Below are positions 959 to 23,035 of a stretch of DNA of 64,000 nt, piece after piece (positions within the stretch are counted from its first letter, which is position 1; each line of letters starts with the position of its first letter). Under the pieces are notes generated by a model. The model searched no databases, was not told the origin of the DNA, and saw only the letters and a program-made list of their open reading frames with translations. Location: sequence record OL631257.1; one strand, 5' to 3'. Made by a program: the position numbers and the translations under genes. The DNA is from Escherichia phage ECCR664.

Positions 959-1530
959 TTAATTAATTAACCAAGCATTGATAAGCAAACCATATTGCGA
1001 ATAAAATTCTGGACCAAAACGAAAAATCATATCATTTATAGTATCCATAATGTAGTTCAATTTAATCATGTTTCCACACCCCATCGGTATTTGACCAAAG
1101 TCGCTGATTATCTGATCCTCGCCACAGCTTTTTGGTCGGAAGATTTTCTCATACTTCCCATCAATAATAACATCAACATATTTAAGCATTTCTAGTTGTT
1201 TAATATCTTCAAACTTGTATCCTGTCCACAACCAAATGCTTTTATTGGGATAAAGATTTTTGCTGTTTGAACAATGCAATGAATAACATCTCGGTTGTCA
1301 GGATAGAGAGGGTCTCCTCCGGTTATAGTCAATCCTTCTATATAATCATTATTCAAGCATTCAATTAATTGTTCTAGTGTTTCACCGGTGAATGGAATAC
1401 CATTTCTAGCGTTCCATGTTGATTTATTATAACACCCTTCGCATTTATGCAAACAACCTGTAACGAAAAGAACGACCCTGCAACCAGGGCCATTCACAAA
1501 ATCGCAAGGATAAAATCTATCATAATTCAT
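959..1530 (-). CDS. nrdG: anaerobic ribonucleotide reductase activating protein NrdG (radical SAM), frameshifted
   Basis: N-terminus 'MNYDRFYPCDFVNGPGCRVVLFVTGCLHKCEGC' has the radical-SAM CxxxCxxC motif; C-terminal 'WLWTGYKFEDIKQLEMLKYVDVIIDGKYEK' continues in another frame (ORFs 1192..1530 and 959..1279). Confidence 0.85.
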
Positions 1531-3343
1531 TGGTGTTTAACCCTATGCATGATTTCTTTATTTTTACCGAGATTAAATCCGCGTTCGTTCGGATTTCCAA
1601 GATAACCGCATGTTCTTCTTATAGTGTTCATCTTTTTAGGATCAGTTTCTCCACAAACTGAACAAACAAATCCGTTTTCAGTAGGAGTCATTTCATGAGT
1701 ACTTCCGCATGTAAAACATTTATCCACTGGCATATTAACACCAAAATAATCTAAATGTTGTGCAGCATAATCCCAGACAGCCTCAAGACCCTTTAAGTTA
1801 TTTTTCATATCAGGAAGTTCAACATAAGAAATGTGACCACCTGTCGCAATGAAATGATATGGCGCTTCACGAGAAATCTTTTCAAACGGAGTAATATTTT
1901 CTTCTACTGAAACGTGGAAACTATTAGTGTACCAGCCTTTATCGGTAACATCTTTTACGCTTCCATATTTTTCTGTATCAAGTTTACAGAAGCGATAACA
2001 AAGGTTTTCAGCAGGAGTAGAATATAAACTAAAAGCAAATCCAGTTCTTTCAGTCCACTGTTTAAGATGAGCATTCATTTTAGTTAAAATTTCTTGCCCA
2101 ATATCACGACCAACAAGAATATTCAATTCATGAATACCAATGTATCCTAAAGACACTGAACTTCTACCGTTTTTAAATAACTCAATTATATCGTCGTCAG
2201 GTTTAAGACGAACCCCGAATGCACCTTCTTGGTAAAGAATAGGAGCAACAGTCGCTTTAACTCCTTTTAAGGAACTAATTCTACACATCAAAGCTTCAAA
2301 ACATAAATCCATTCGTTCATTGAACAATTCGATAAATTTCTGTTCATTGAATTGTGTTCCAATATAAGAATCTAATGCGATACGAGGAAGATTCAGTGTT
2401 ACAACACCGAGATTATTACGTCCATCAAGAATTTCATTACCGGTTGAATCTTTCCATACGCTCAAGAAACTACGACAACCCATTGGAGAAACAGGAATAG
2501 ATGAGCCAGTGATAGCTTTATTGTTCTTAGCTGAAATAATATCAGGATACATTCTTTTGCTTGCACACTCTAGAGCGAGTTGCTTAATATCATAGTTCGG
2601 ATCATCTTTATAAAGATTAACACCTTCTTCAACAAACATAACAAGTTTAGGAAAAATAGGAGTTATCCCATCACGTCCAAGACCTTTAATGCGGTTTTTA
2701 AGAATTGCCTTCTGAATCATTCGTTCAGTCCAATCAGTTCCTGTTCCAAATGTTATAGTAACAAAAGGAGTTTGTCCGTTTGAACTAAAAAGAGTATTTA
2801 CTTCATATTCATAAGCTTGGAATGCATCGTATACGTCTTTTTCTGTTTTAGATTGAGCATAATTCAACGCATCAGCGATTTGCCATTTTCTGCATCTTCA
2901 ACATGTTTAGCGTATGTACGTTTAACATAAGGAGAAAGAACTTTATCGACATTTGCAAATGTAGTTCCGCCATACTGATGTGAAGCAACTTGTGCAGTAA
3001 TTTGTGCCATAATTGCAGTAGCAACACCAATCGATTTAGGCGTTTCGATTTGAGCATTGCCTAATTTAAATCCATTCTCAAGCATCCCCTTTAAATCGAC
3101 TAAACAGCAATTAGTAAACGGAAGAGCAGGAGAATAATCAATATCATGCATGTGGATAATTCCACTTTCATGCGCATTCATAATAAAAGACGGGACCATA
3201 TTTTTGGCAATGTGCTTAGACACAATACCAGCCATAAGGTCCCGTTGAGTTGGAAAAACACGAGAATCTTTATTAGCATTCTCGTTCAAAAGATCTTTAT
3301 TAGTTTTATAAATTAATCCTTCAATTTCTTTTTCAATTTTCAT
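1527..3343 (-). CDS. nrdD: anaerobic ribonucleoside-triphosphate reductase NrdD (glycyl radical enzyme), intron-less, one frameshift near 2864-2890
   Basis: ORFs 2864..3343 and 1527..2867 together match T4 NrdD end to end; glycyl-radical motif 'RRTCGYLG' and C-terminal Zn ribbon present; the break falls at a T4 run around 2886-2889. Confidence 0.95.
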
Positions 3344-14411: not shown

Positions 14412-14713
14412 TTAGATAGATGTAGGCTCTAATTTTATTTTCATGAACTCAGCAAATTGTCTGGCGGTTTTTATGCCTTGTTCATGACATTCAAATGCAT
14501 CATCACAGGGACTATTTTTGTAATGCTTTGCCATATACTTATAGAATTTTTCAGAATTCTCGACATTTTGAATTTCAAACAAAGTATATACGTTTTTAAT
14601 CCCTGATTCCATAAAGTTATCAAAATATGGGTCGATATGTGCAGTACCAACGATAGGAGTTGTTGCTGCAAAAACCCCAGCATCGCTATGACAGCTATCG
14701 CTCTTAAGGCCAT
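14412..14713 (-). CDS. rI: lysis inhibition regulator RI (membrane/periplasmic antiholin-type), frameshifted
   Basis: 'MALRAIAVIAMLGF' then frame change into 'AATTPIVGTAHIDPYFDNFMESGIKNVYTLFEIQN...KIKLEPTSI'; matches T4 RI. Confidence 0.85.
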
Positions 14714-14965: not shown

Positions 14966-15545
14966 TTATAACAACCCTGTCAAATCATTCCAATGCTTCC
15001 GGCATAATGACACGTATCTATCAGTATCACCAATTTCAATTTGACTGCCATCTGTAATTGGAAGTCCGTCTTCCGTGACTCTAGCTACCATTGTGGCCTT
15101 TTACCACAATGACAGACACCTTTAAGTTCAACAAGCTTATCGGCAATAGCCATTAATGCTTGAGAACCTTCAAATAGATTACCTTTAAAATCTGTTCGTA
15201 GTCCATATGCCATTACTGGCACATTGTATACGTCAACAATACGACTAAGTTGATACACCTTTTCAGTAGTTAAGAACTGAGCTTCGTCAACAAATACACA
15301 ATGAATATCCTTTGTGCTGCAGCCCATTTATAGAATTCAAAGATGTCCATGTCTTTTGTAATTATATTGGCATCCTGACGAATACCAATACGAGAGACTA
15401 TTTCACCTTTTGAATCACGAGTATCAATAGCCGGTTTAAGAACTAATACACCCATGCCACGTTCTTTATAGTTATGTGCGGCAGTAAGTAATGAAGCAGA
15501 CTTACCAGCATTCATAGCGGCATATGTAAAAATTAAACTAGCCAT
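14966..15545 (-). CDS. tk: thymidine kinase, frameshifted (at least 2 indels)
   Basis: P-loop '[22 protein letters not shown]', 'VFVDEAQFL', C-terminal 'CHCGKK..' Zn motif across ORFs 15270..15545 and 15085..15327 and a third frame. Confidence 0.9.
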
Positions 15546-15554
15546 AAGAGTCCC

Positions 15555-15737
15555 TTATAGTGAATTCACGTAGTCAATGAGTTCTTGTTCTTTCCTGTCA
15601 AATGATTCCATCAATGCGTGATATTCTTCGTCCGTCAAAGGAGCATATTCATCGTACGCATTGGTGGCTGCTTGTTCATCCAATAGGTCATGGATAAGTT
15701 CGAACAGTTTAGCTTTCTCTTCTTTAGTCAATTTCAT
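15555..15737 (-). CDS. hypothetical protein (60 aa)
   Basis: ORF. Confidence 0.4.
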   Translation of the reverse strand: MKLTKEEKAKLFELIHDLLDEQAATNAYDEYAPLTDEEYHALMESFDRKEQELIDYVNSL

Positions 15738-15946
15738 TTAGGTTCACCTTCTTTAACGAAATCTGGGTAAGGGTAAAATCCTGAGTAAAACCCTTCACCT
15801 TTATGATTACTACAACCTTTGTTCGAACAGTAACACCAATAATCAAAATCACAAGCCATTTCGTCATTGCATAAAGCAAAAACTACAGGCCATTCGCATT
15901 TTTCGCATTTAGCGCCTGTAAGAATTTTTGTTTGGCTCATAACCAT
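15734..15946 (-). CDS. small Cys-rich protein (70 aa, 8 Cys)
   Basis: 'CEKCEW...CNDEMACDFDYWCYCSNKGC'. Confidence 0.4.
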   Translation of the reverse strand: MVMSQTKILTGAKCEKCEWPVVFALCNDEMACDFDYWCYCSNKGCSNHKGEGFYSGFYPYPDFVKEGEPK

Positions 15947-16164
15947 GTCACCTTTAAGCAGTATTCTTCTACATGCTGTTTACGACCTTTCTTATCAATA
16001 AAGGTATATTCAACGAATGTTCCAATGTAGTCTTTATCTACATCATGTGGACTATTAATTGGACATTTAGTACGACAAATGCGTTCCCATTGACGAATAA
16101 TTACTGCCTTATTCTTTGGGTCGTATGGATGTGGATAATGTATATTCATAATAATGGTTCCCAA
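15937..16164 (-). CDS. hypothetical protein (75 aa)
   Basis: ORF. Confidence 0.4.
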   Translation of the reverse strand: MGTIIMNIHYPHPYDPKNKAVIIRQWERICRTKCPINSPHDVDKDYIGTFVEYTFIDKKGRKQHVEEYCLKVTWL

Positions 16165-16643
16165 TCAACAATCACAATTTCTAGTTTAGTGGAATACGTA
16201 TCTAAAATCTCTTCGATGATATCCCAGTTTCCGCCACCGATACCAGCACCAATTCTTGGCATATAAATTAAAGGCTTTGTTATCTTATTCTTTCCGAATT
16301 TATTTAATTCTATTATACAATTCATTAAAGCAGAGTACTCAAAATTAGGTCCAGGCTCAAACTGTGTATAAAGATTAAAGCAATAAGCTTTATGGGTCTT
16401 AAAATATTTTTCATAAACCGAATAAGTCCCGAGTTTAGATTCGTCTCCGAATTCGGTTTGAAGTTTATCGGCTTCCAGAATTTTTGGATAAGCCTTTGCT
16501 AATTGACCTGCTACACCAGCGCCCATTGTATGAAAACAATTGCACCCATGAGCAATATTATTACCTTTAGAAAACAGGGCGACAATATCGCCCTTGATAT
16601 AGTTTTTAATCACTTGCTGCAAGTCCTCTAGTATAAGAGTCAA
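16146..16643 (-). CDS. macrodomain-like protein (putative ADP-ribose binding/processing)
   Basis: 'IAHGCNCFHTMGAGVAGQLAKAYP' resembles the macro 'NAANxxLxxGGGVxxAI' motif; 'PRIGAGIGGGNWD' resembles the distal GxGxxG phosphate loop; 165 aa. Confidence 0.5.
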   Translation of the reverse strand: MTLILEDLQQVIKNYIKGDIVALFSKGNNIAHGCNCFHTMGAGVAGQLAKAYPKILEADKLQTEFGDESKLGTYSVYEKYFKTHKAYCFNLYTQFEPGPNFEYSALMNCIIELNKFGKNKITKPLIYMPRIGAGIGGGNWDIIEEILDTYSTKLEIVIVDWEPLL

Positions 16644-16953
16644 CTAGACGGTCCACCATAGAATTGCATGCTGCCTTATCTTTAGGTTCCGCCACCGAGC
16701 ATTCTAATATTTGCCATTTTTTATAGTATCTTTTAATTAAGGTAGACGCCTTGAACCTACTAGACGCCCCATCTTTTTCTCCGTCTTTATACGCATATAA
16801 CAATTTTTGTGAAAAATCTACTTTACACTCTTGACTTTTACCACAATAATCAGACGCCGTTCTGTTTGTATACTCCGTTACATCAGTATATGTAGTATTA
16901 GCAAGAGCGTTAAATGAAACCAAGCCAACTATTAAAGCTAACATTTTGGTCAT
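16606..16953 (-). CDS. predicted periplasmic protein with signal peptide (115 aa)
   Basis: 'MTKMLALIVGLVSFNALA' signal-like N-terminus. Confidence 0.45.
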   Translation of the reverse strand: MTKMLALIVGLVSFNALANTTYTDVTEYTNRTASDYCGKSQECKVDFSQKLLYAYKDGEKDGASSRFKASTLIKRYYKKWQILECSVAEPKDKAACNSMVDRLVDSYTRGLAASD

Positions 16954-17492
16954 TCTTTTATTTCCAGTAGTTTATTTGATTTAAGGTAATTAGCCTTTTC
17001 TAGGACTTCAGAAGCATATTTACTTCCAGCACTTGTCTTCCATCCCGCATTATATGAGGATATAGCTTTTCTTATATCCCCGTTATGTATATTTAACCAA
17101 TAAGAAAATTCGATATAAGCCCATCTGGCTGAATTAGACCGCTTAGATAGCATTTTCTTAATTTGGGCATCAGTCATATTATAACCAAGCTGGTTAATTC
17201 TTGCCCTCATTGTTGGTAGATAGTTTTGGAACATTCCATACGCATGGTGACCTTTCTTATCTTTAAGATTAATACCTGCGGATGATTCTTGCCATAGTAT
17301 TGCGGCCATTATGTATCCAAGTCCTTTCTTATGCATATTTTCATGCGTTTTAAATTTTCCGTCCTTAGAAAACTGTTCCCCAAACTGATAAGCATAATTC
17401 AAGTTATCGAGTTGGACATTACTAAAAGTATGCTCGGAGCTATGTGCTGATAACGAAAGAGCAAATAGACCAGCGAGTAGTGCTTTTCTCAT
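16950..17492 (-). CDS. secreted lytic transglycosylase-like protein (SLT-like)
   Basis: Signal peptide 'MRKALLAGLFALSLSA'; 'WQESSAG...YGMFQ' resembles the SLT catalytic 'ES...GLMQ' motif. Confidence 0.45.
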   Translation of the reverse strand: MRKALLAGLFALSLSAHSSEHTFSNVQLDNLNYAYQFGEQFSKDGKFKTHENMHKKGLGYIMAAILWQESSAGINLKDKKGHHAYGMFQNYLPTMRARINQLGYNMTDAQIKKMLSKRSNSARWAYIEFSYWLNIHNGDIRKAISSYNAGWKTSAGSKYASEVLEKANYLKSNKLLEIKE

Positions 17493-17500
17493 GTTTACCT

Positions 17501-17957
17501 CTAGATTTTAATCACTGCTTTAGAAGCTTTTCCTGGTAGTCGTTTACTGTTAATAATAGCCATTCTGCATTGAAGAGTCTTCATTTTGAATGCTGGATTT
17601 TCGCGACAGACTGTAAGTCCTAACCAAAGATTTCCGTCAGTTATTTCTAAACGGCCTGGGCGATATTCGACACCTTCGACAAAATCTTCATCAACATCTG
17701 GACGTGCCGGCATTGATAAAAATTCTGCAACTTCTTTAACATGATTTTTACTTTATGAAATAATTCAAAACGTAATTCTCATCTATTTCTCTCTGGATGG
17801 CACGATCTAAGAGATGTTGAGAATACTTGATATGAAAGCCTGGTAGTCCAAGAGACTTTGCAGCATCTTTTATACCGGCATTTATTTTGCGGAACTCCGT
17901 TTCAAAGATTCGACGGAGTTTATTACGGCGGATAAAAACGTCAGAATTGATAGTCAT
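17501..17957 (-). CDS. regB: endoribonuclease RegB, frameshifted
   Basis: ORFs 17748..17957 ('MTINSDVFIRRNKLRR...HLLDRAIQREIDE') and 17501..17713 ('...GVEYRPGRLEITDGNLW...CRMAIINSKRLPGKASKAVIK') match T4 RegB. Confidence 0.85.
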
Positions 17958-17986
17958 TTTTGATTTCTCCTCTAGTTGACAGGTCT

Positions 17987-18015
17987 ATAGTAACACATCT
18001 AGAGGAGAAGTAAAC
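17987..18015 (-). promoter_or_regulatory. T4-type early promoter
   Basis: Minus strand GTTTAC, 17 nt, TACTAT upstream of regB. Confidence 0.5.
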
Positions 18016-18019
18016 TACT

Positions 18020-18235
18020 TTATTGATAAAATGGAGTTAAAGCCCAAGATTCTTTAGATACCATATTGGCGAAATGCCTCATCTCTTCGATTTGGCGACG
18101 ACGCTGGTCAGCATAGTCTTCTTCACCTTCTTCCTTACAATCTTCAAGGTCTTCTTCAAGATACTTTAAGTATTCACTACAAATTTTGTTGACCTTTTCT
18201 TGAAAGTCCAATAACCCGGTAATAGTAGAAGCCAT
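18020..18235 (-). CDS. hypothetical protein (71 aa, acidic)
   Basis: ORF. Confidence 0.4.
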   Translation of the reverse strand: MASTITGLLDFQEKVNKICSEYLKYLEEDLEDCKEEGEEDYADQRRRQIEEMRHFANMVSKESWALTPFYQ

Positions 18236-18501
18236 TAGTATTTTTCCTCAGGTCGAAATACTGCACGACATGCCCACATACTGGCTTCTTTTAGATGTTG
18301 CTTAGCATACTTAAGAGCCTGCACTGCATCCATATCTTCTTTGGTTTGTTGCTCTGATTCATTTTCTTTCAAGATATATGCTTCTTCAATCAGAGCATCA
18401 AACATCAATCCAAGACGGACTTCGGCGTCTTTAATAGCGTTCACTTTACTGATTTTATCATCGGTATGCGGCTTGTAGCCTTTGATGTCTTCAATCGACA
18501 T
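18235..18501 (-). CDS. hypothetical protein (about 88 aa; start at 'MSIEDIKG')
   Basis: ORF 18235..18669, probable internal start overlapping the upstream stop. Confidence 0.4.
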   Translation of the reverse strand: MSIEDIKGYKPHTDDKISKVNAIKDAEVRLGLMFDALIEEAYILKENESEQQTKEDMDAVQALKYAKQHLKEASMWACRAVFRPEEKY

Positions 18502-18715
18502 AAGGAATTTCCTCATCGGTGGCAAGGTCATATTCGACCAATTGGATAGGCTCATTAATACCATATCCACGTACAGTGATATCGGTTGACGGATATTTTC
18601 CAGTAATATCACCCGTTCTAAATGCTTCAATGAATGATTGCTCGCCTGAGCAACTAAACCAGGCGGCAAAACATTTTAAAACATCTTCAGACCCTTCTAT
18701 AATCAATTTAGCCAT
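18491..18715 (-). CDS. hypothetical protein (74 aa)
   Basis: ORF. Confidence 0.4.
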   Translation of the reverse strand: MAKLIIEGSEDVLKCFAAWFSCSGEQSFIEAFRTGDITGKYPSTDITVRGYGINEPIQLVEYDLATDEEIPYVD

Positions 18716-19077
18716 TATAAACTCTCAGTAAAGGTACGAGCGATAACGTCGCGCTGCTGTTCCGGAGTCAGAGAGTTAAAGCGAACTGCATAACCGGATA
18801 CACGAATGGTCAGCTGTGGATATTTTTCCGGATGCTTAACTGCATCTTCCAGAGTTTCACGACGCAGAACGTTAACGTTCAGGTGCTGACCACCTTCAAT
18901 TTTAACTTTAGGTTGATGTTCAATTTCAATTTCACGAGCATTCAAACCGTAGAAAATTTCTGGGTCTACAATAGCGTCTTCTTTAAAAGTCTTAGAGACA
19001 ATAATCCGGGCTTGAGTACCGTCTTCAAAATAAATAGTGCCTTTATGTTCACCTTCAAGAATTTGATATGCTTTCAT
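18715..19077 (-). CDS. grcA: autonomous glycyl radical cofactor GrcA/YfiD-like protein
   Basis: C-terminus '[55 protein letters not shown]' carries the glycyl-radical motif RVSGY and closely resembles E. coli GrcA. Confidence 0.85.
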
Positions 19078-19100
19078 ATAACCTCAATTAGAAAATAAAT

Positions 19101-19391
19101 TTATCCAAGATTTTCTTTAATCAAAAATGGGTCGGAATTAAACGCCATTAAACTTTGAGTGATTAATCCCTTAAATGGCCCATCAATAAATTCCATTTTG
19201 AAATGCGGAATACTAGTCATCAACCGTGCATTAGGAGCAGTACAAAGAACCTGCTGACCTGCGAACGGACCTTTAGTCAAACGATATCGTTTAGGTTTAA
19301 AATGGTAGATCTCGTAATTTTCTACAAGAGCCCTTTTATTGCATACTGGACTGTTATAACAATACTCAAAAACTTCAATAGTGGTCATCAT
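19101..19391 (-). CDS. hypothetical protein (96 aa)
   Basis: ORF. Confidence 0.45.
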   Translation of the reverse strand: MMTTIEVFEYCYNSPVCNKRALVENYEIYHFKPKRYRLTKGPFAGQQVLCTAPNARLMTSIPHFKMEFIDGPFKGLITQSLMAFNSDPFLIKENLG

Positions 19392-19401
19392 TGCATTCCA
19401 A

Positions 19402-19925
19402 TCACAAAAATTGAGGACGAGCAGTACCGCCTATGCAATATTTGCTTTTGCAGCAGTGCTGTACTGATTTAATATGGACATTGTAAATCTTATCCATATC
19501 AGGAGCTTTAATAGGCTCGTCAATTATGTATAGAATACGAGAAAGCGTTAATCCACGGAATTTAGAACCTTCATTGCCAATAAAACTACGGACAGAATCA
19601 GTAAATAAACGGAATCGAATATCATCGCTAGAATAACGAGAAAATTCTTTTTAATGTTGCCAGCAGAAATTTTAGCATAAGCTGAAGTATTAGAAAGAAC
19701 AATAACTGTTCCATCGTCGTGCAGCCAATTAGCAGCAAAATTAGTTACTGCAGTGGATTTACCTGATTGTCTGCCACCGTCTAAACGAAGTGTACAGTAC
19801 TGCTTGAGTATGTCTTCAAATGGTGGGACATAACCATTCTTACAAATTTCTTCTACTCTAGCATCAGAATGGTGTGTAAAAGCATTCATCAGGGATAGAT
19901 AAGGTCCAGTTAAAAATGTTTTCAT
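19402..19925 (-). CDS. P-loop NTPase-like protein (Walker A 'GGRQSGKST'), frameshifted
   Basis: ORF 19548..19973 plus a continuing frame ending at 19402. Confidence 0.4.
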
Positions 19926-20162
19926 TTTGTTCTCTCTAAGTTTGGGCCATTCCATGGCACATGAATTGTCCATTTCTGTATTTACCCATTACCGCACTTG
20001 GGCTCGACCTTATTACAGGTTGGCGGGAATCCCTCATAGAATCATGAGGTCCAGCTTGTTCCCATGTTATTTGAATGTAAATATTTTTGCCTTAATACTT
20101 ATACCAGTGTGGCTTCATTAAAATTTTTTCATCGAGTCATTTTACCTCTCCAAGTAATTATG

Positions 20163-20195
20163 ATTATACTATCACAATTCTAGGAGAAAGTAAAC
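20163..20195 (-). promoter_or_regulatory. T4-type early promoter
   Basis: Minus strand GTTTAC followed by a TATAAT-like box. Confidence 0.4.
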
Positions 20196-20197
20196 TG

Positions 20198-20500
20198 TTA
20201 TTTACCTTTAATTACTTTAGCTGCTTCGATAGCCGCTTGCTGAAGGTCATCCATAGACATACCGAATTTAGAAGCAAAGTTATCAATTTTCTTTTCAACA
20301 GCATTCAAAGGCTTGGCCTGTTTACCTTCATTAGCGCCAGGAAGAGCGAGAATACGCTCTTTGTCAATATAAAGGCTTACAAGTTTCTTACGGTCTTTAT
20401 CGGACAAATCGTGAAATGAATGGGCCTTTTTATTTATAGCGGCTTCTAATTTACCTGCACTCACTCGCGCTTCAGTAATAAATTCTTGATATGTTTTCAT
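20198..20500 (-). CDS. ipII: internal protein II (capsid-packaged, N-terminal capsid targeting sequence)
   Basis: 'MKTYQEFITEARV...' N-terminal targeting sequence; 100 aa; matches T4 IPII. Confidence 0.85.
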   Translation of the reverse strand: MKTYQEFITEARVSAGKLEAAINKKAHSFHDLSDKDRKKLVSLYIDKERILALPGANEGKQAKPLNAVEKKIDNFASKFGMSMDDLQQAAIEAAKVIKGK

Positions 20501-20530
20501 TTTTGTTTCCTTGTTTGTTTTGATAGAGTA

Positions 20531-20560
20531 ATTATACCATATTAATACTTAAGCGTAAAC
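20531..20560 (-). promoter_or_regulatory. T4-type early promoter
   Basis: Minus strand GTTTAC, 18 nt, TATAAT upstream of ipII. Confidence 0.55.
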
Positions 20561-20581
20561 TGTTTAAGCTTTACCATCGCA

Positions 20582-21004
20582 ACCTTTTTCCTTAGTAAAT
20601 TGATTTACCATAGTATTTGTACCAAGTAGGACGTTGAGCAATTTTTTCATCTAAACGAGCTTGACTTATCGCAATGGACGCTTCGGTCGGGACATAATTA
20701 TTACGAAATTCGGCAGGGATGTCGGAAATATCTTGGACAGTCGTGTCCTTGATTTTGAAACCACGTTTCAAGCATTCAGCGATTAGCTCGATTTGACGTA
20801 AACGTAAAAATTCGAGTTTGTCGTAAAGAATGTTACATGACCTGTGCCTAAGATAAATGTCGGGGAGATTTTAAAATCCTTTACACGTTTACCGTTTTGA
20901 ACATGTTTACGGACTGCACCAAATATGCGTGGTAATTCACGATACTCAGCCATAAGATGTTGGTCGGTCAGTTCAGAAACAAGTGTTAAATTGATACGAG
21001 TCAT
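20582..21004 (-). CDS. denV: endonuclease V (pyrimidine dimer DNA glycosylase), frameshifted
   Basis: '[60 protein letters not shown]' then C-terminus '...[10 protein letters not shown]' in another frame. Confidence 0.9.
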
Positions 21005-21031
21005 AATTTCCTCCAAGTAGTTGATGAATGT

Positions 21032-21061
21032 ATAGTATCAAAACCCTTGGAGGAAGTAAAC
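21032..21061 (-). promoter_or_regulatory. T4-type early promoter
   Basis: Minus strand GTTTAC, 17-18 nt, TACTAT upstream of denV. Confidence 0.45.
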
Positions 21062-21062
21062 A

Positions 21063-21344
21063 CTATTTTTCTGAAGCGCCTGAAATATATTTTTCAAGAC
21101 GTTGTTTCATCAGCGAGCCGTTCTTAGCGATTTCTTCCGGTTTATCACACATACGCAACAAGGCTTCAAGCTTAACGATATCACTGGTGCGCTCAAATTT
21201 GCGAGTATCTATCTTACTAGCAAGTTCAGAAATACGTGCTAATAGACTTTCAGCTTCAACCAAAGCTGCACCTAGCTTAGTTGCAAATGTGTCAGTAGCT
21301 TCGTTAAGAATAGATTCTGATAAAAATTCACTATATGTTTTCAT
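21063..21344 (-). CDS. internal-protein-like protein with capsid targeting sequence (IPIII-like)
   Basis: Starts '[10 protein letters not shown]'; start overlaps the stop of e (ATGA). Confidence 0.55.
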
Positions 21345-21829
21345 ATATACGCTTTCCAAGTTCCTGTTTTAAATGTTGAGATTACGCGTTTCGCGCGATT
21401 AGGTGTCTGACGATACCATTTAGATTGGGCTAGATTTACTGCCGCTTCATCCCAACGTTTCTGTTGAAGCATACGAAGAGAATTAGTAAAACCGGCGACG
21501 CCTGCTACTCCCATTTGGAAGACCATATTGACCAATGCACATCGACGAACCGCGTCTAAAGAATCATACACCGGTTTAAGTTTAGCATTACCCAAGATTC
21601 CGCGAACGGCTTTATCAACATCTTCATTAAATAGCTTTTCAGCCTCATCAAGGGTAATTGTACCGTTACATTTACGGCCGACCATTCTGTCAAGTTCAGC
21701 TTTAGCTACGGCTAAAGACGGGTTCTTTGTTACCAAATGGCCTATGCCAATAGTCCAAAAGCCTTCGGTGTCTTTGTATAAAGACAGTCTAAGACCTTCG
21801 TCATTACGAAGCATTTCAAATATATTCAT
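21341..21829 (-). CDS. e: endolysin (T4 lysozyme, gene e)
   Basis: '[32 protein letters not shown]' matches T4 lysozyme including catalytic Glu11, Asp20 and Thr26; GGAGG ribosome-binding site upstream. Confidence 0.95.
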
Positions 21830-21863
21830 AATACCTCCCACGTTTATAGGAGGTATTTATTAC

Positions 21864-22322
21864 TTATAGGAGGGTAGTGAGCACCTTATATAATGATTTG
21901 CCCATTACATATTCCCATTGAGAAGGTTTAATTAAAGCGAATGCATCAAATTCAGGAATCTGACGTCCGTCTGGGAATGTATGATAGGAATTACAAACAC
22001 TGTTTCTGAATTGCTCGTGCTCTACAGGGATGGTATATAGGAACAGATGAATATTCTTATTGTCTGAGTAATGATGTTCACCTAGGTCTTTCAGGAAGGC
22101 AGGGTCATATTGTGTAAACCCAGTTTCTTCTTCGCATTCACGAATAGCGGCTTCAATAGGAGATTCGCCAGGTTCGACACGGCCTTTAGGAATATCCCAC
22201 CGATGAGCTAAAGAACCTTTAGGACGAGAACCAGTTACACGTCCCATGAATAATTCTTTATCTTTTGTCATGAAGATAATACCGGCTGATAGTTCTTTCA
22301 CTTTATTTTTCTTACTCATCAT
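21864..22322 (-). CDS. nudE: Nudix hydrolase NudE
   Basis: Nudix box 'GRVEPGESPIEAAIRECEEETG'. Confidence 0.9.
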   Translation of the reverse strand: MMSKKNKVKELSAGIIFMTKDKELFMGRVTGSRPKGSLAHRWDIPKGRVEPGESPIEAAIRECEEETGFTQYDPAFLKDLGEHHYSDNKNIHLFLYTIPVEHEQFRNSVCNSYHTFPDGRQIPEFDAFALIKPSQWEYVMGKSLYKVLTTLL

Positions 22323-22324
22323 CT

Positions 22325-22562
22325 CGGTCCCATGATTTGGCCATTAATTCGGACATAAATTCTTCAATACGCGTTTCTTTAGATGGACTTTCACTATTAG
22401 AGACCGCGAGTTTGTAATCTGCAATAGGACGGAACAAATCAAGGTCCATATTAAGATCGTCTTTGATTTTTCTTCTGACACATCTTTATCATATGTGTAC
22501 AGATAACTATCACACGATTCTGATTTAATGTAAATTGCTATACTCATCTCAAATTCCTGCAT
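22325..22562 (-). CDS. small acidic hypothetical protein (frameshift suspected)
   Basis: ORF 22344..22562 plus an alternative frame. Confidence 0.3.
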
Positions 22563-23035
22563 TCAGTTATAAAACGTTCAACTTCATTATTCTTGGCCTT
22601 TATCTTGTCTTTACGTTCCTGTAAACTACTTTTAACAAGATTAATAATGATGGCGGCGGTACCGCCGCCAATGATGCCACCAACAACACTTATGATACTA
22701 GATGCTAATAAGATAGCAATAATATCAACAAAACCGAAAGAACTAACCTTAGTACTAAAAAACCATACCGACGGTACAAATATAATCCATCCTGTTATCC
22801 ATTGGCACTTATTGAAAAACTTTTCAAGCTCAGCTTGAGTTGTTCGTATTACTTCATCGATAGGTTGATATCCATTAATGTATCTGTTCACGATAATACC
22901 TGCTGGCTGGTCGATTTTAAATTCTTGACAAATACGTTTCACTAAGTAGGATGGACATCCTGTCCAATCCACTGAATAGTACGAAATACCTTCATTGTCA
23001 TCGTCAATATTAGACCAATATGTTTTGTTAATCAT
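22544..23035 (-). CDS. membrane protein (Gly-zipper TM segment)
   Basis: 'ILLASSIISVVGGIIGGGTAAIIINLV' hydrophobic segment. Confidence 0.45.
   Translation of the reverse strand: MINKTYWSNIDDDNEGISYYSVDWTGCPSYLVKRICQEFKIDQPAGIIVNRYINGYQPIDEVIRTTQAELEKFFNKCQWITGWIIFVPSVWFFSTKVSSFGFVDIIAILLASSIISVVGGIIGGGTAAIIINLVKSSLQERKDKIKAKNNEVERFITECRNLR

Follow-up and report, generated by a model that had tools for sequence, protein, structure and literature searches.

The gene at 18715..19077 on the minus strand of the window (by which we mean the whole 64,000-nt stretch of Escherichia phage ECCR664 DNA that was analysed) is, by homology and gene order, the Mosigvirus ortholog of T4 vs.6/Y06I, and lies in a conserved vs.5-vs.6-vs.7 block. 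We consider it very probable that this ortholog, a probable spare part for pyruvate formate-lyase (PFL), has had its 3' tract overwritten by recurrent gene conversion from host to phage. The nucleotide comparisons presented below give good support to an overwriting of the radical-domain segment by host grcA that is specific to the host species and apparently recurrent. Neither the gene nor its likely function is new: both are already known, phage GrcA is routinely annotated, and the gene itself adds nothing to this. What is of value is the mosaic pattern, in which a strictly lytic phage would have copied part of a chromosomal gene from its host by recombination on repeated occasions.

Identification of the window gene as a vs.6 ortholog

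The open reading frame runs from an ATG at 19077..19075 to a TAA at 18717..18715 and encodes a stand-alone glycyl-radical domain protein of 120 aa (about 14 kDa); a putative ribosome-binding site, GAGG, can be read 4 nt 5' of the ATG (19082..19085, minus strand). The first-pass annotation had called a GrcA (YfiD)-type cofactor gene at this place, a call upheld by the ORF itself, by a Pfam Gly_radical match (PF01228; residues 59-101 on profile positions 64-106 of 106, E = 2e-18) and by BLASTP against E. coli GrcA (E = 9e-53, 74/100 identities). Its claim that the C-terminal 65 aa are nearly identical to GrcA held as well: 62 of the 65 agree, and the last 58 are 100% identical, RVSGY included. 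When the alignment against the GrcA C-terminus was made, similarity indeed reached far past the RVSGY motif (58/58 aa). This glycyl radical motif, recognised in the translation and aligned with GrcA (PDB 6OWR) and PflB, occupies residues 92-96 (18790..18804, minus strand), and the predicted radical glycine is G95 (18793..18795, minus strand), whose counterpart in PflB lies, by alignment, in the RVSGY around G734.

On the phage side, PHROG 1209 was matched over its full length (residues 1-120 against profile positions 1-121, E = 5.9e-63), and 112/120 aa are identical to T4 Vs.6. With TIGR04365, the NCBIfam equivalog model for GrcA, the protein scored 159.1 bits, below the 170-bit cut-off and against 233.9 for E. 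coli GrcA, because its N-terminal half is divergent (the match begins at residue 18). This N-half was not reliably modelled in a single-sequence AlphaFold2 prediction of the protein (mean pLDDT 37.5). At the DNA level, the gene is 97-99% identical to Mosigvirus genes annotated as 'autonomous glycyl radical cofactor', an annotation that vs.6 carries in hundreds of phage genomes; megablast matched it in 788 phage records, and tblastn found a relative in 1588, including several T4-like genera, T5-like phages and Aeromonas phages. The source phage is of the Mosigvirus type, T4-like, with region 15000-23000 of the window 97% identical to NHEP29, JS09 and others. Phage GrcA (T4 Y06I/Vs.6) was reportedly characterised in 2001. 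The gene is also among the ORFs conserved in all T4-like genomes compared by Nolan et al. (2006).

Comparison with the best-known relatives gives a clear picture of what is shared and what is not. T4 Vs.6/Y06I (NP_049730) has the same length, the same vs.5-vs.6-vs.7 context and the same composition of a phage N-half and an E. coli-identical C tract; it differs from the window protein by eight amino acid substitutions, of which seven fall in the N-half, and T4 belongs to Tequatrovirus whereas the window phage falls in the Mosigvirus group (RB69/JS09/PhAPEC2). E. coli GrcA (YfiD; PDB 6OWR) shares the architecture and the radical domain, with 168/171 nt identical over codons 61-117, but the window protein is 7 aa shorter and its N-terminal 60 residues are weakly similar. 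The genomic setting differs too: E. coli grcA sits at the host ung-grcA locus, while vs.6 is expressed from the phage early-region cluster. The two-part protein with a conserved radical domain is found again in the GrcA-like genes of Jiaodavirus, Slopekvirus, Karamvirus and Pseudotevenvirus, as well as in those of T5-like Demerecviridae, jumbo and Aeromonas phages.

Mosaic structure of vs.6

Compared codon by codon with E. coli grcA, the gene shows a sharp switch. Over codons 61-117 (18727..18897, minus strand) the window differs from E. coli at 3/171 nt, all of them synonymous, so that this putatively host-derived tract is essentially E. coli grcA DNA, whereas over codons 31-60 the differences amount to 43/90 nt (Fisher p = 2e-20). 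Codons 1-60 (18898..19077, minus strand) encode a diverged homolog of the GrcA N-terminus and are, judging from their composition and distribution, old phage sequence. Between the N-half and the C-half of vs.6, GC3 rises from 0.20 to 0.40, the E. coli grcA value over the C tract being 0.42, and a 24-letter protein motif in the N-half is common to Tequatro-, Mosig-, Jiaoda-, Karam-, Slopek- and Pseudotevenvirus, at syntenic positions. The last three codons and the stop (18715..18726, minus strand) are again phage-specific when compared with E. coli (GAG AGT TTA TAA in the window, GAA AGC CTG TAA in E. coli); each phage group has its own differences at this 3' end, where the stop codon and the start codon of vs.5 overlap (TAATG). 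No indels separate vs.6 from its relatives.

The distribution of substitutions between genera bears on the age of the tract. Fixed differences between Tequatrovirus and Mosigvirus number 12 in the N-half and 0 in the C tract (p = 4e-4), while the two halves have similar numbers of singleton substitutions (17 in the N-half and 12 in the C tract), so that the tract is younger than the split between the two genera, and not simply slow-evolving.

The first-pass annotation had proposed a recent acquisition of the gene from an enterobacterial host. This can be retained for codons 61-117, given their 3/171 nt, but not for the 5' half, which is old phage sequence by its GC3 and part of a gene that is syntenic across T4-like genera. 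The pattern would be that of recent gene conversion acting on a gene long resident in the phage, and not of the complete gene having been captured recently. The converted tract would begin where strong phage-host similarity starts (EGGQHLNV) and end a few codons before the stop codon that overlaps vs.5. Its junctions are in frame and lie at the same place in all phage genomes carrying the tract.

The tract follows the host species

The 171 nt of E. coli grcA that correspond to the tract differ at 13 positions from Citrobacter amalonaticus, at 21 from K. pneumoniae and at 29 from Salmonella. By comparison, T4, PhAPEC2, the window and the genomes L092-L097 all lie within 0-3 nt of E. coli grcA (1 nt for T4), and two of these phages, L093 and L095, are identical to it over the tract. 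At the sites separating E. coli from K. pneumoniae, the window carries the E. coli state in 19 out of 21 cases. More broadly, the last 186 nt of E. coli grcA find matches of at least 95% identity in 638 phage records.

Jiaodavirus phages of Klebsiella have the phage N-half too, but their 3' tract matches the grcA of K. pneumoniae. As an example, the tract of pKp20 reaches 96% identity with K. pneumoniae over 173 nt, compared to 86.7% with E. coli; 18 of its 21 diagnostic sites are in the K. pneumoniae state, and its GC3 of 0.61 is close to that of the host (0.67). A metagenomic phage (L176) does not differ from K. pneumoniae grcA at any of 153 nt, and among Klebsiella-phage records 106 are 95-99% identical to the 3' end of K. 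pneumoniae grcA, where E. coli phages reach 85-88%. The tract also separates sister phages: L175 and L176, both Jiaodavirus, differ at 3/180 nt in the N-half and at 12/153 nt in the C tract (p = 0.008), with L175 bearing mostly Raoultella-like states in the latter.

As a control, we looked at Pseudotevenvirus-like phages (L103, L105 and L106), in which the tract encodes a protein segment identical to that of E. coli GrcA (57/57 aa) and yet 28/171 nt differ. Selection on the protein alone does not, therefore, explain the identity of the DNA. Recent conversion was absent in Slopekvirus, Karamvirus, Pseudotevenvirus, Krischvirus-like, T5-like, jumbo and Aeromonas phages, and when these non-converted lineages were compared with about 150 host grcA sequences, the best identity was 76-86%. 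Host-identical DNA was found in Tequatrovirus and Mosigvirus (E. coli type) and in Jiaodavirus (Klebsiella/Raoultella type) only. Since Slopekvirus, Karamvirus, Pseudotevenvirus, T5-like and Aeromonas phages lack it, the conversion process is not general.

Some observations at the margin of these comparisons are worth recording. Tequatroviruses from Yersinia (PYps47T, fPS-2, phiD1), Salmonella (SG1, Lv5cm) and Citrobacter (PhiZZ6) have an E. coli-type tract (97-98%), which suggests that the recent evolutionary host of these isolates is Escherichia. The private substitutions of E. coli phages share 3 sites (195, 219 and 282) with natural grcA alleles, where about 1.9 would be expected; the overlap is not significant and lends no support to different E. 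coli alleles as donors. A Yersinia-like tract in L120 (IMGVR_UViG_2706794630_000006) was also discarded: its N-terminus (MITGIQITK...) is that of a bacterial grcA, so this is host sequence. The three private substitutions of the window lie at gene positions 192, 261 and 273, and not all of them may be real, because the assembly contains sequencing errors (see below).

Direction of transfer and alternative explanations

We propose that vs.6 combines an old 5' half, passed down vertically within the phages, with a 3' segment of approximately 150-170 nt that would have been exchanged time and again, through homologous or homeologous recombination, for the corresponding stretch of grcA from whichever species the phage was infecting. 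Tequatrovirus and Mosigvirus, the window among them, would have received it from E. coli, and Jiaodavirus from K. pneumoniae or from a Raoultella-like species. Transfer from host to phage appears as the parsimonious direction because the two halves of host grcA diverge roughly in step (31/201 and 21/171 between E. coli and K. pneumoniae, 31/201 and 29/171 between E. coli and Salmonella), because E. coli and K. pneumoniae both have grcA adjoining ung, and because the tract has a host-like composition inside an AT-rich phage gene. Among the E. coli phages, either several independent host-to-phage events or a single one followed by spread through phage-to-phage recombination could have taken place, and the latter would also account for the zero fixed differences in the C tract between genera.

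Other histories would produce some of these features. A recent capture of the whole gene from an enterobacterial host would fit a C terminus with 58 aa equal to GrcA and a 3' DNA that is 98% identical to grcA, but it is contradicted by the low GC3 of the 5' half and its 43/90 nt differences over codons 31-60. This half is, moreover, phage-specific and conserved at a syntenic locus in at least six T4-like genera, and the conservation of vs.6 in all the T4-like genomes compared by Nolan et al. (2006) speaks against it too, so that we regard such a capture as very improbable. The same very low probability applies to a single ancient capture without later exchange, in which the tract would have been preserved by very strong purifying selection, codon choice included. 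The radical domain protein is indeed nearly invariant across phage lineages; nevertheless, the Pseudotevenvirus-like phages combine full protein identity over the tract with 28 nucleotide differences, synonymous sites contradict this history by following the host (E. coli in E. coli phages, K. pneumoniae in Klebsiella phages), and singletons accrue about equally, with 12 in the C tract and 17 in the N-half. An even slimmer chance, close to nil, is left to the tract being an artefact, either of host reads in phage assemblies or of exchange during laboratory propagation. The many homopolymer errors in the assembly of the window could raise this suspicion, but more than 600 independent phage genomes, the T4 reference among them, carry the tract, as do metagenomic contigs of uncultured phages (165-171 kb), with junctions that are in frame and identically placed in all genomes. 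As for the recurrent host-to-phage conversion that we favour, we found no description of the pattern in the searchable literature, a search outside of which much subscription literature falls; we would give roughly even odds to conversion of the vs.6 3' tract being both real and undescribed.

A probable spare part for pyruvate formate-lyase

Residues 57-120 of the vs.6 protein align with residues 696-759 of PflB at 49/64 identities, RVSGY loop included, as the alignment to the PflB C-terminus called for by the first-pass annotation confirmed; the same residues also align with the GrcA NMR entry 6OWR. This stretch of PflB is its C-terminal glycyl radical domain (PDB 1H16, 2PFL), the part that the spare part replaces. 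The two proteins differ in build: PflB is a 760-aa enzyme with the domain at its end, while the vs.6 product stands alone with 120 aa. According to Wagner et al. (2001, BBRC 285:456), as cited in PMC8683613 and PMC13450708, T4 Y06I restores O2-cleaved PFL, and both YfiD and Y06I take the glycyl radical from PFL activase. Spare-part rescue has been demonstrated for PFL only, as stated in the 2021 paper (PMC8683613) and the 2026 review (PMC13450708). A spare-part role for pyruvate metabolism, as first suggested for this gene, gains support through the T4 ortholog Y06I as described in these accounts, given the 112/120 aa that the two proteins share, and by this analogy we infer that the vs.6 protein repairs oxygen-damaged host pyruvate formate-lyase.

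In the infected cell, the host activase PflA would install the radical on G95, as it does in vitro on the T4 protein, and the C-terminal domain would then dock into a host PFL whose own radical domain has been cut off by oxygen. Docking would restore the conversion of pyruvate to acetyl-CoA and formate. T-even phages shut off host gene expression, and for this reason a phage-made copy would presumably keep fermentative energy metabolism going in microaerobic infection. The searchable literature yielded no infection phenotype of vs.6.

The first-pass annotation had also noted NrdD and NrdG at 959..3343, where both are present, each split into two ORFs in the assembly, and had linked vs.6 to the protection of anaerobic nucleotide metabolism. 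Under this reading, the vs.6 protein would be a spare part for the phage NrdD, activated by NrdG and guarding the nucleotide supply. It has in its favour that the phage encodes both NrdD and NrdG, that NrdD and Vs.6 both match Pfam Gly_radical, and that a role in nucleotide metabolism was speculated upon by Nolan et al. (2006). However, BLASTP detected no similarity between the vs.6 protein and the C-terminal part of NrdD from the window (best E = 4.2), in which the loop reads RRTCGY and lies within a different domain; the vs.6 domain copies host GrcA, a mimic of PflB 696-759, and rescue is on record for PFL only (PMC8683613, PMC13450708). A role in rescuing NrdD is thus unsupported by the sequence comparisons, and we consider it quite unlikely.

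Implications of the proposed recurrent conversion

If the proposed conversion is true, T-even phages recombine with the host chromosome in nature, though they degrade host DNA and modify their own, and the tract is replaced even between sister phages of one genus. There would possibly be selection for a phage spare part that matches the PflB/PflA of the local host exactly. The tract would constitute a built-in record of the species in which a phage lineage has recently replicated and could serve as a short sequence marker of recent host species for T4-like phages, uncultured ones included. Conversion would be datable against the divergence of host species, offering a tractable system for measuring host-to-phage recombination. 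The analysis also corrects the idea that the vs.6 protein serves the phage NrdD.

Gene neighbourhood and assembly errors

On the minus strand, vs.6 is followed downstream by the ortholog of vs.5 (18491..18715; PHROG 1986, 2.1e-38; syntenic with PhAPEC2 and T4) and preceded upstream by that of vs.7 (19101..19391; PHROG 2049, 2.5e-44), both identified as ORFs; the latter has a distorted 3' end owing to one missing homopolymer base at about 19111. In PhAPEC2 and T4, vs.6 occupies the same position, with vs.5 and vs.7 on either side, and the gene order in the regB-denV early block as a whole (vs.5 downstream, vs.7 and vs.8 upstream) is that of both phages. The gene had been described as next to regB, but regB lies about 760 nt downstream, with vs.5, vs.4/acb2 and an RB69ORF117c-like ORF in between. 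The ortholog of vs.4/acb2 (about 18235..18480, minus strand) matches Pfam Acb2_Tad1_hairpin (3e-17), the hairpin domain of the anti-CBASS and anti-Thoeris proteins Acb2 and Tad1; it bears a 15-nt and a 6-nt insertion relative to PhAPEC2, and the mechanically listed 144-aa ORF with a TTG start that covers it runs too far, into vs.5. The RB69ORF117c-like small ORF is found at 18020..18235, and regB, the endoribonuclease gene, at about 17501..17957 (minus strand), as two ORFs matching positions 1-66 and 81-148 of the Pfam REGB_T4 profile. A scan for promoters and terminators over 17300..21000 gave match counts at the level of shuffled sequence.

Ten single-base deletions relative to PhAPEC2 were seen in this part of the window, at 14670, 15099, 15311, 17745, 17767, 19111, 19406, 19653, 20825 and 22467. 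Nine of them fall within A or T homopolymer runs (for example A5 instead of A6), and at 19653 a C is missing beside a T run. They look like sequencing or assembly errors, giving artefactual frameshifts in several genes. regB is split just where homopolymer bases are missing, at 17745 and 17767, and vs.7 and vs.8 are distorted by such deletions as well. The splits of nrdD (2864..3343, profile positions 1-129, and 1527..2867, positions 127-562; minus strand) and of nrdG (1192..1530 and 959..1279, minus strand) are probably homopolymer frameshift artefacts too.

Further upstream, the ORF for the N-terminal part of vs.8 (19548..19973, minus strand) is truncated by a homopolymer frameshift. It contains a Walker-A-like GGRQSGKST and has a weak match to Pfam Terminase_6N that did not reach the cut-off (E = 0.003). 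The 5' end of vs.8 and the sequence just upstream of it form a second island of high identity between T4 and Mosigvirus (about 19840..20040, minus strand; 97-100%, with flanks at 75-88%). This island was rejected as a second host-derived tract, since it had no E. coli match; nor did it match an Rfam family or a tRNA or show unusual folding (z = -0.29). Phage-to-phage exchange is one possible cause of its identity.
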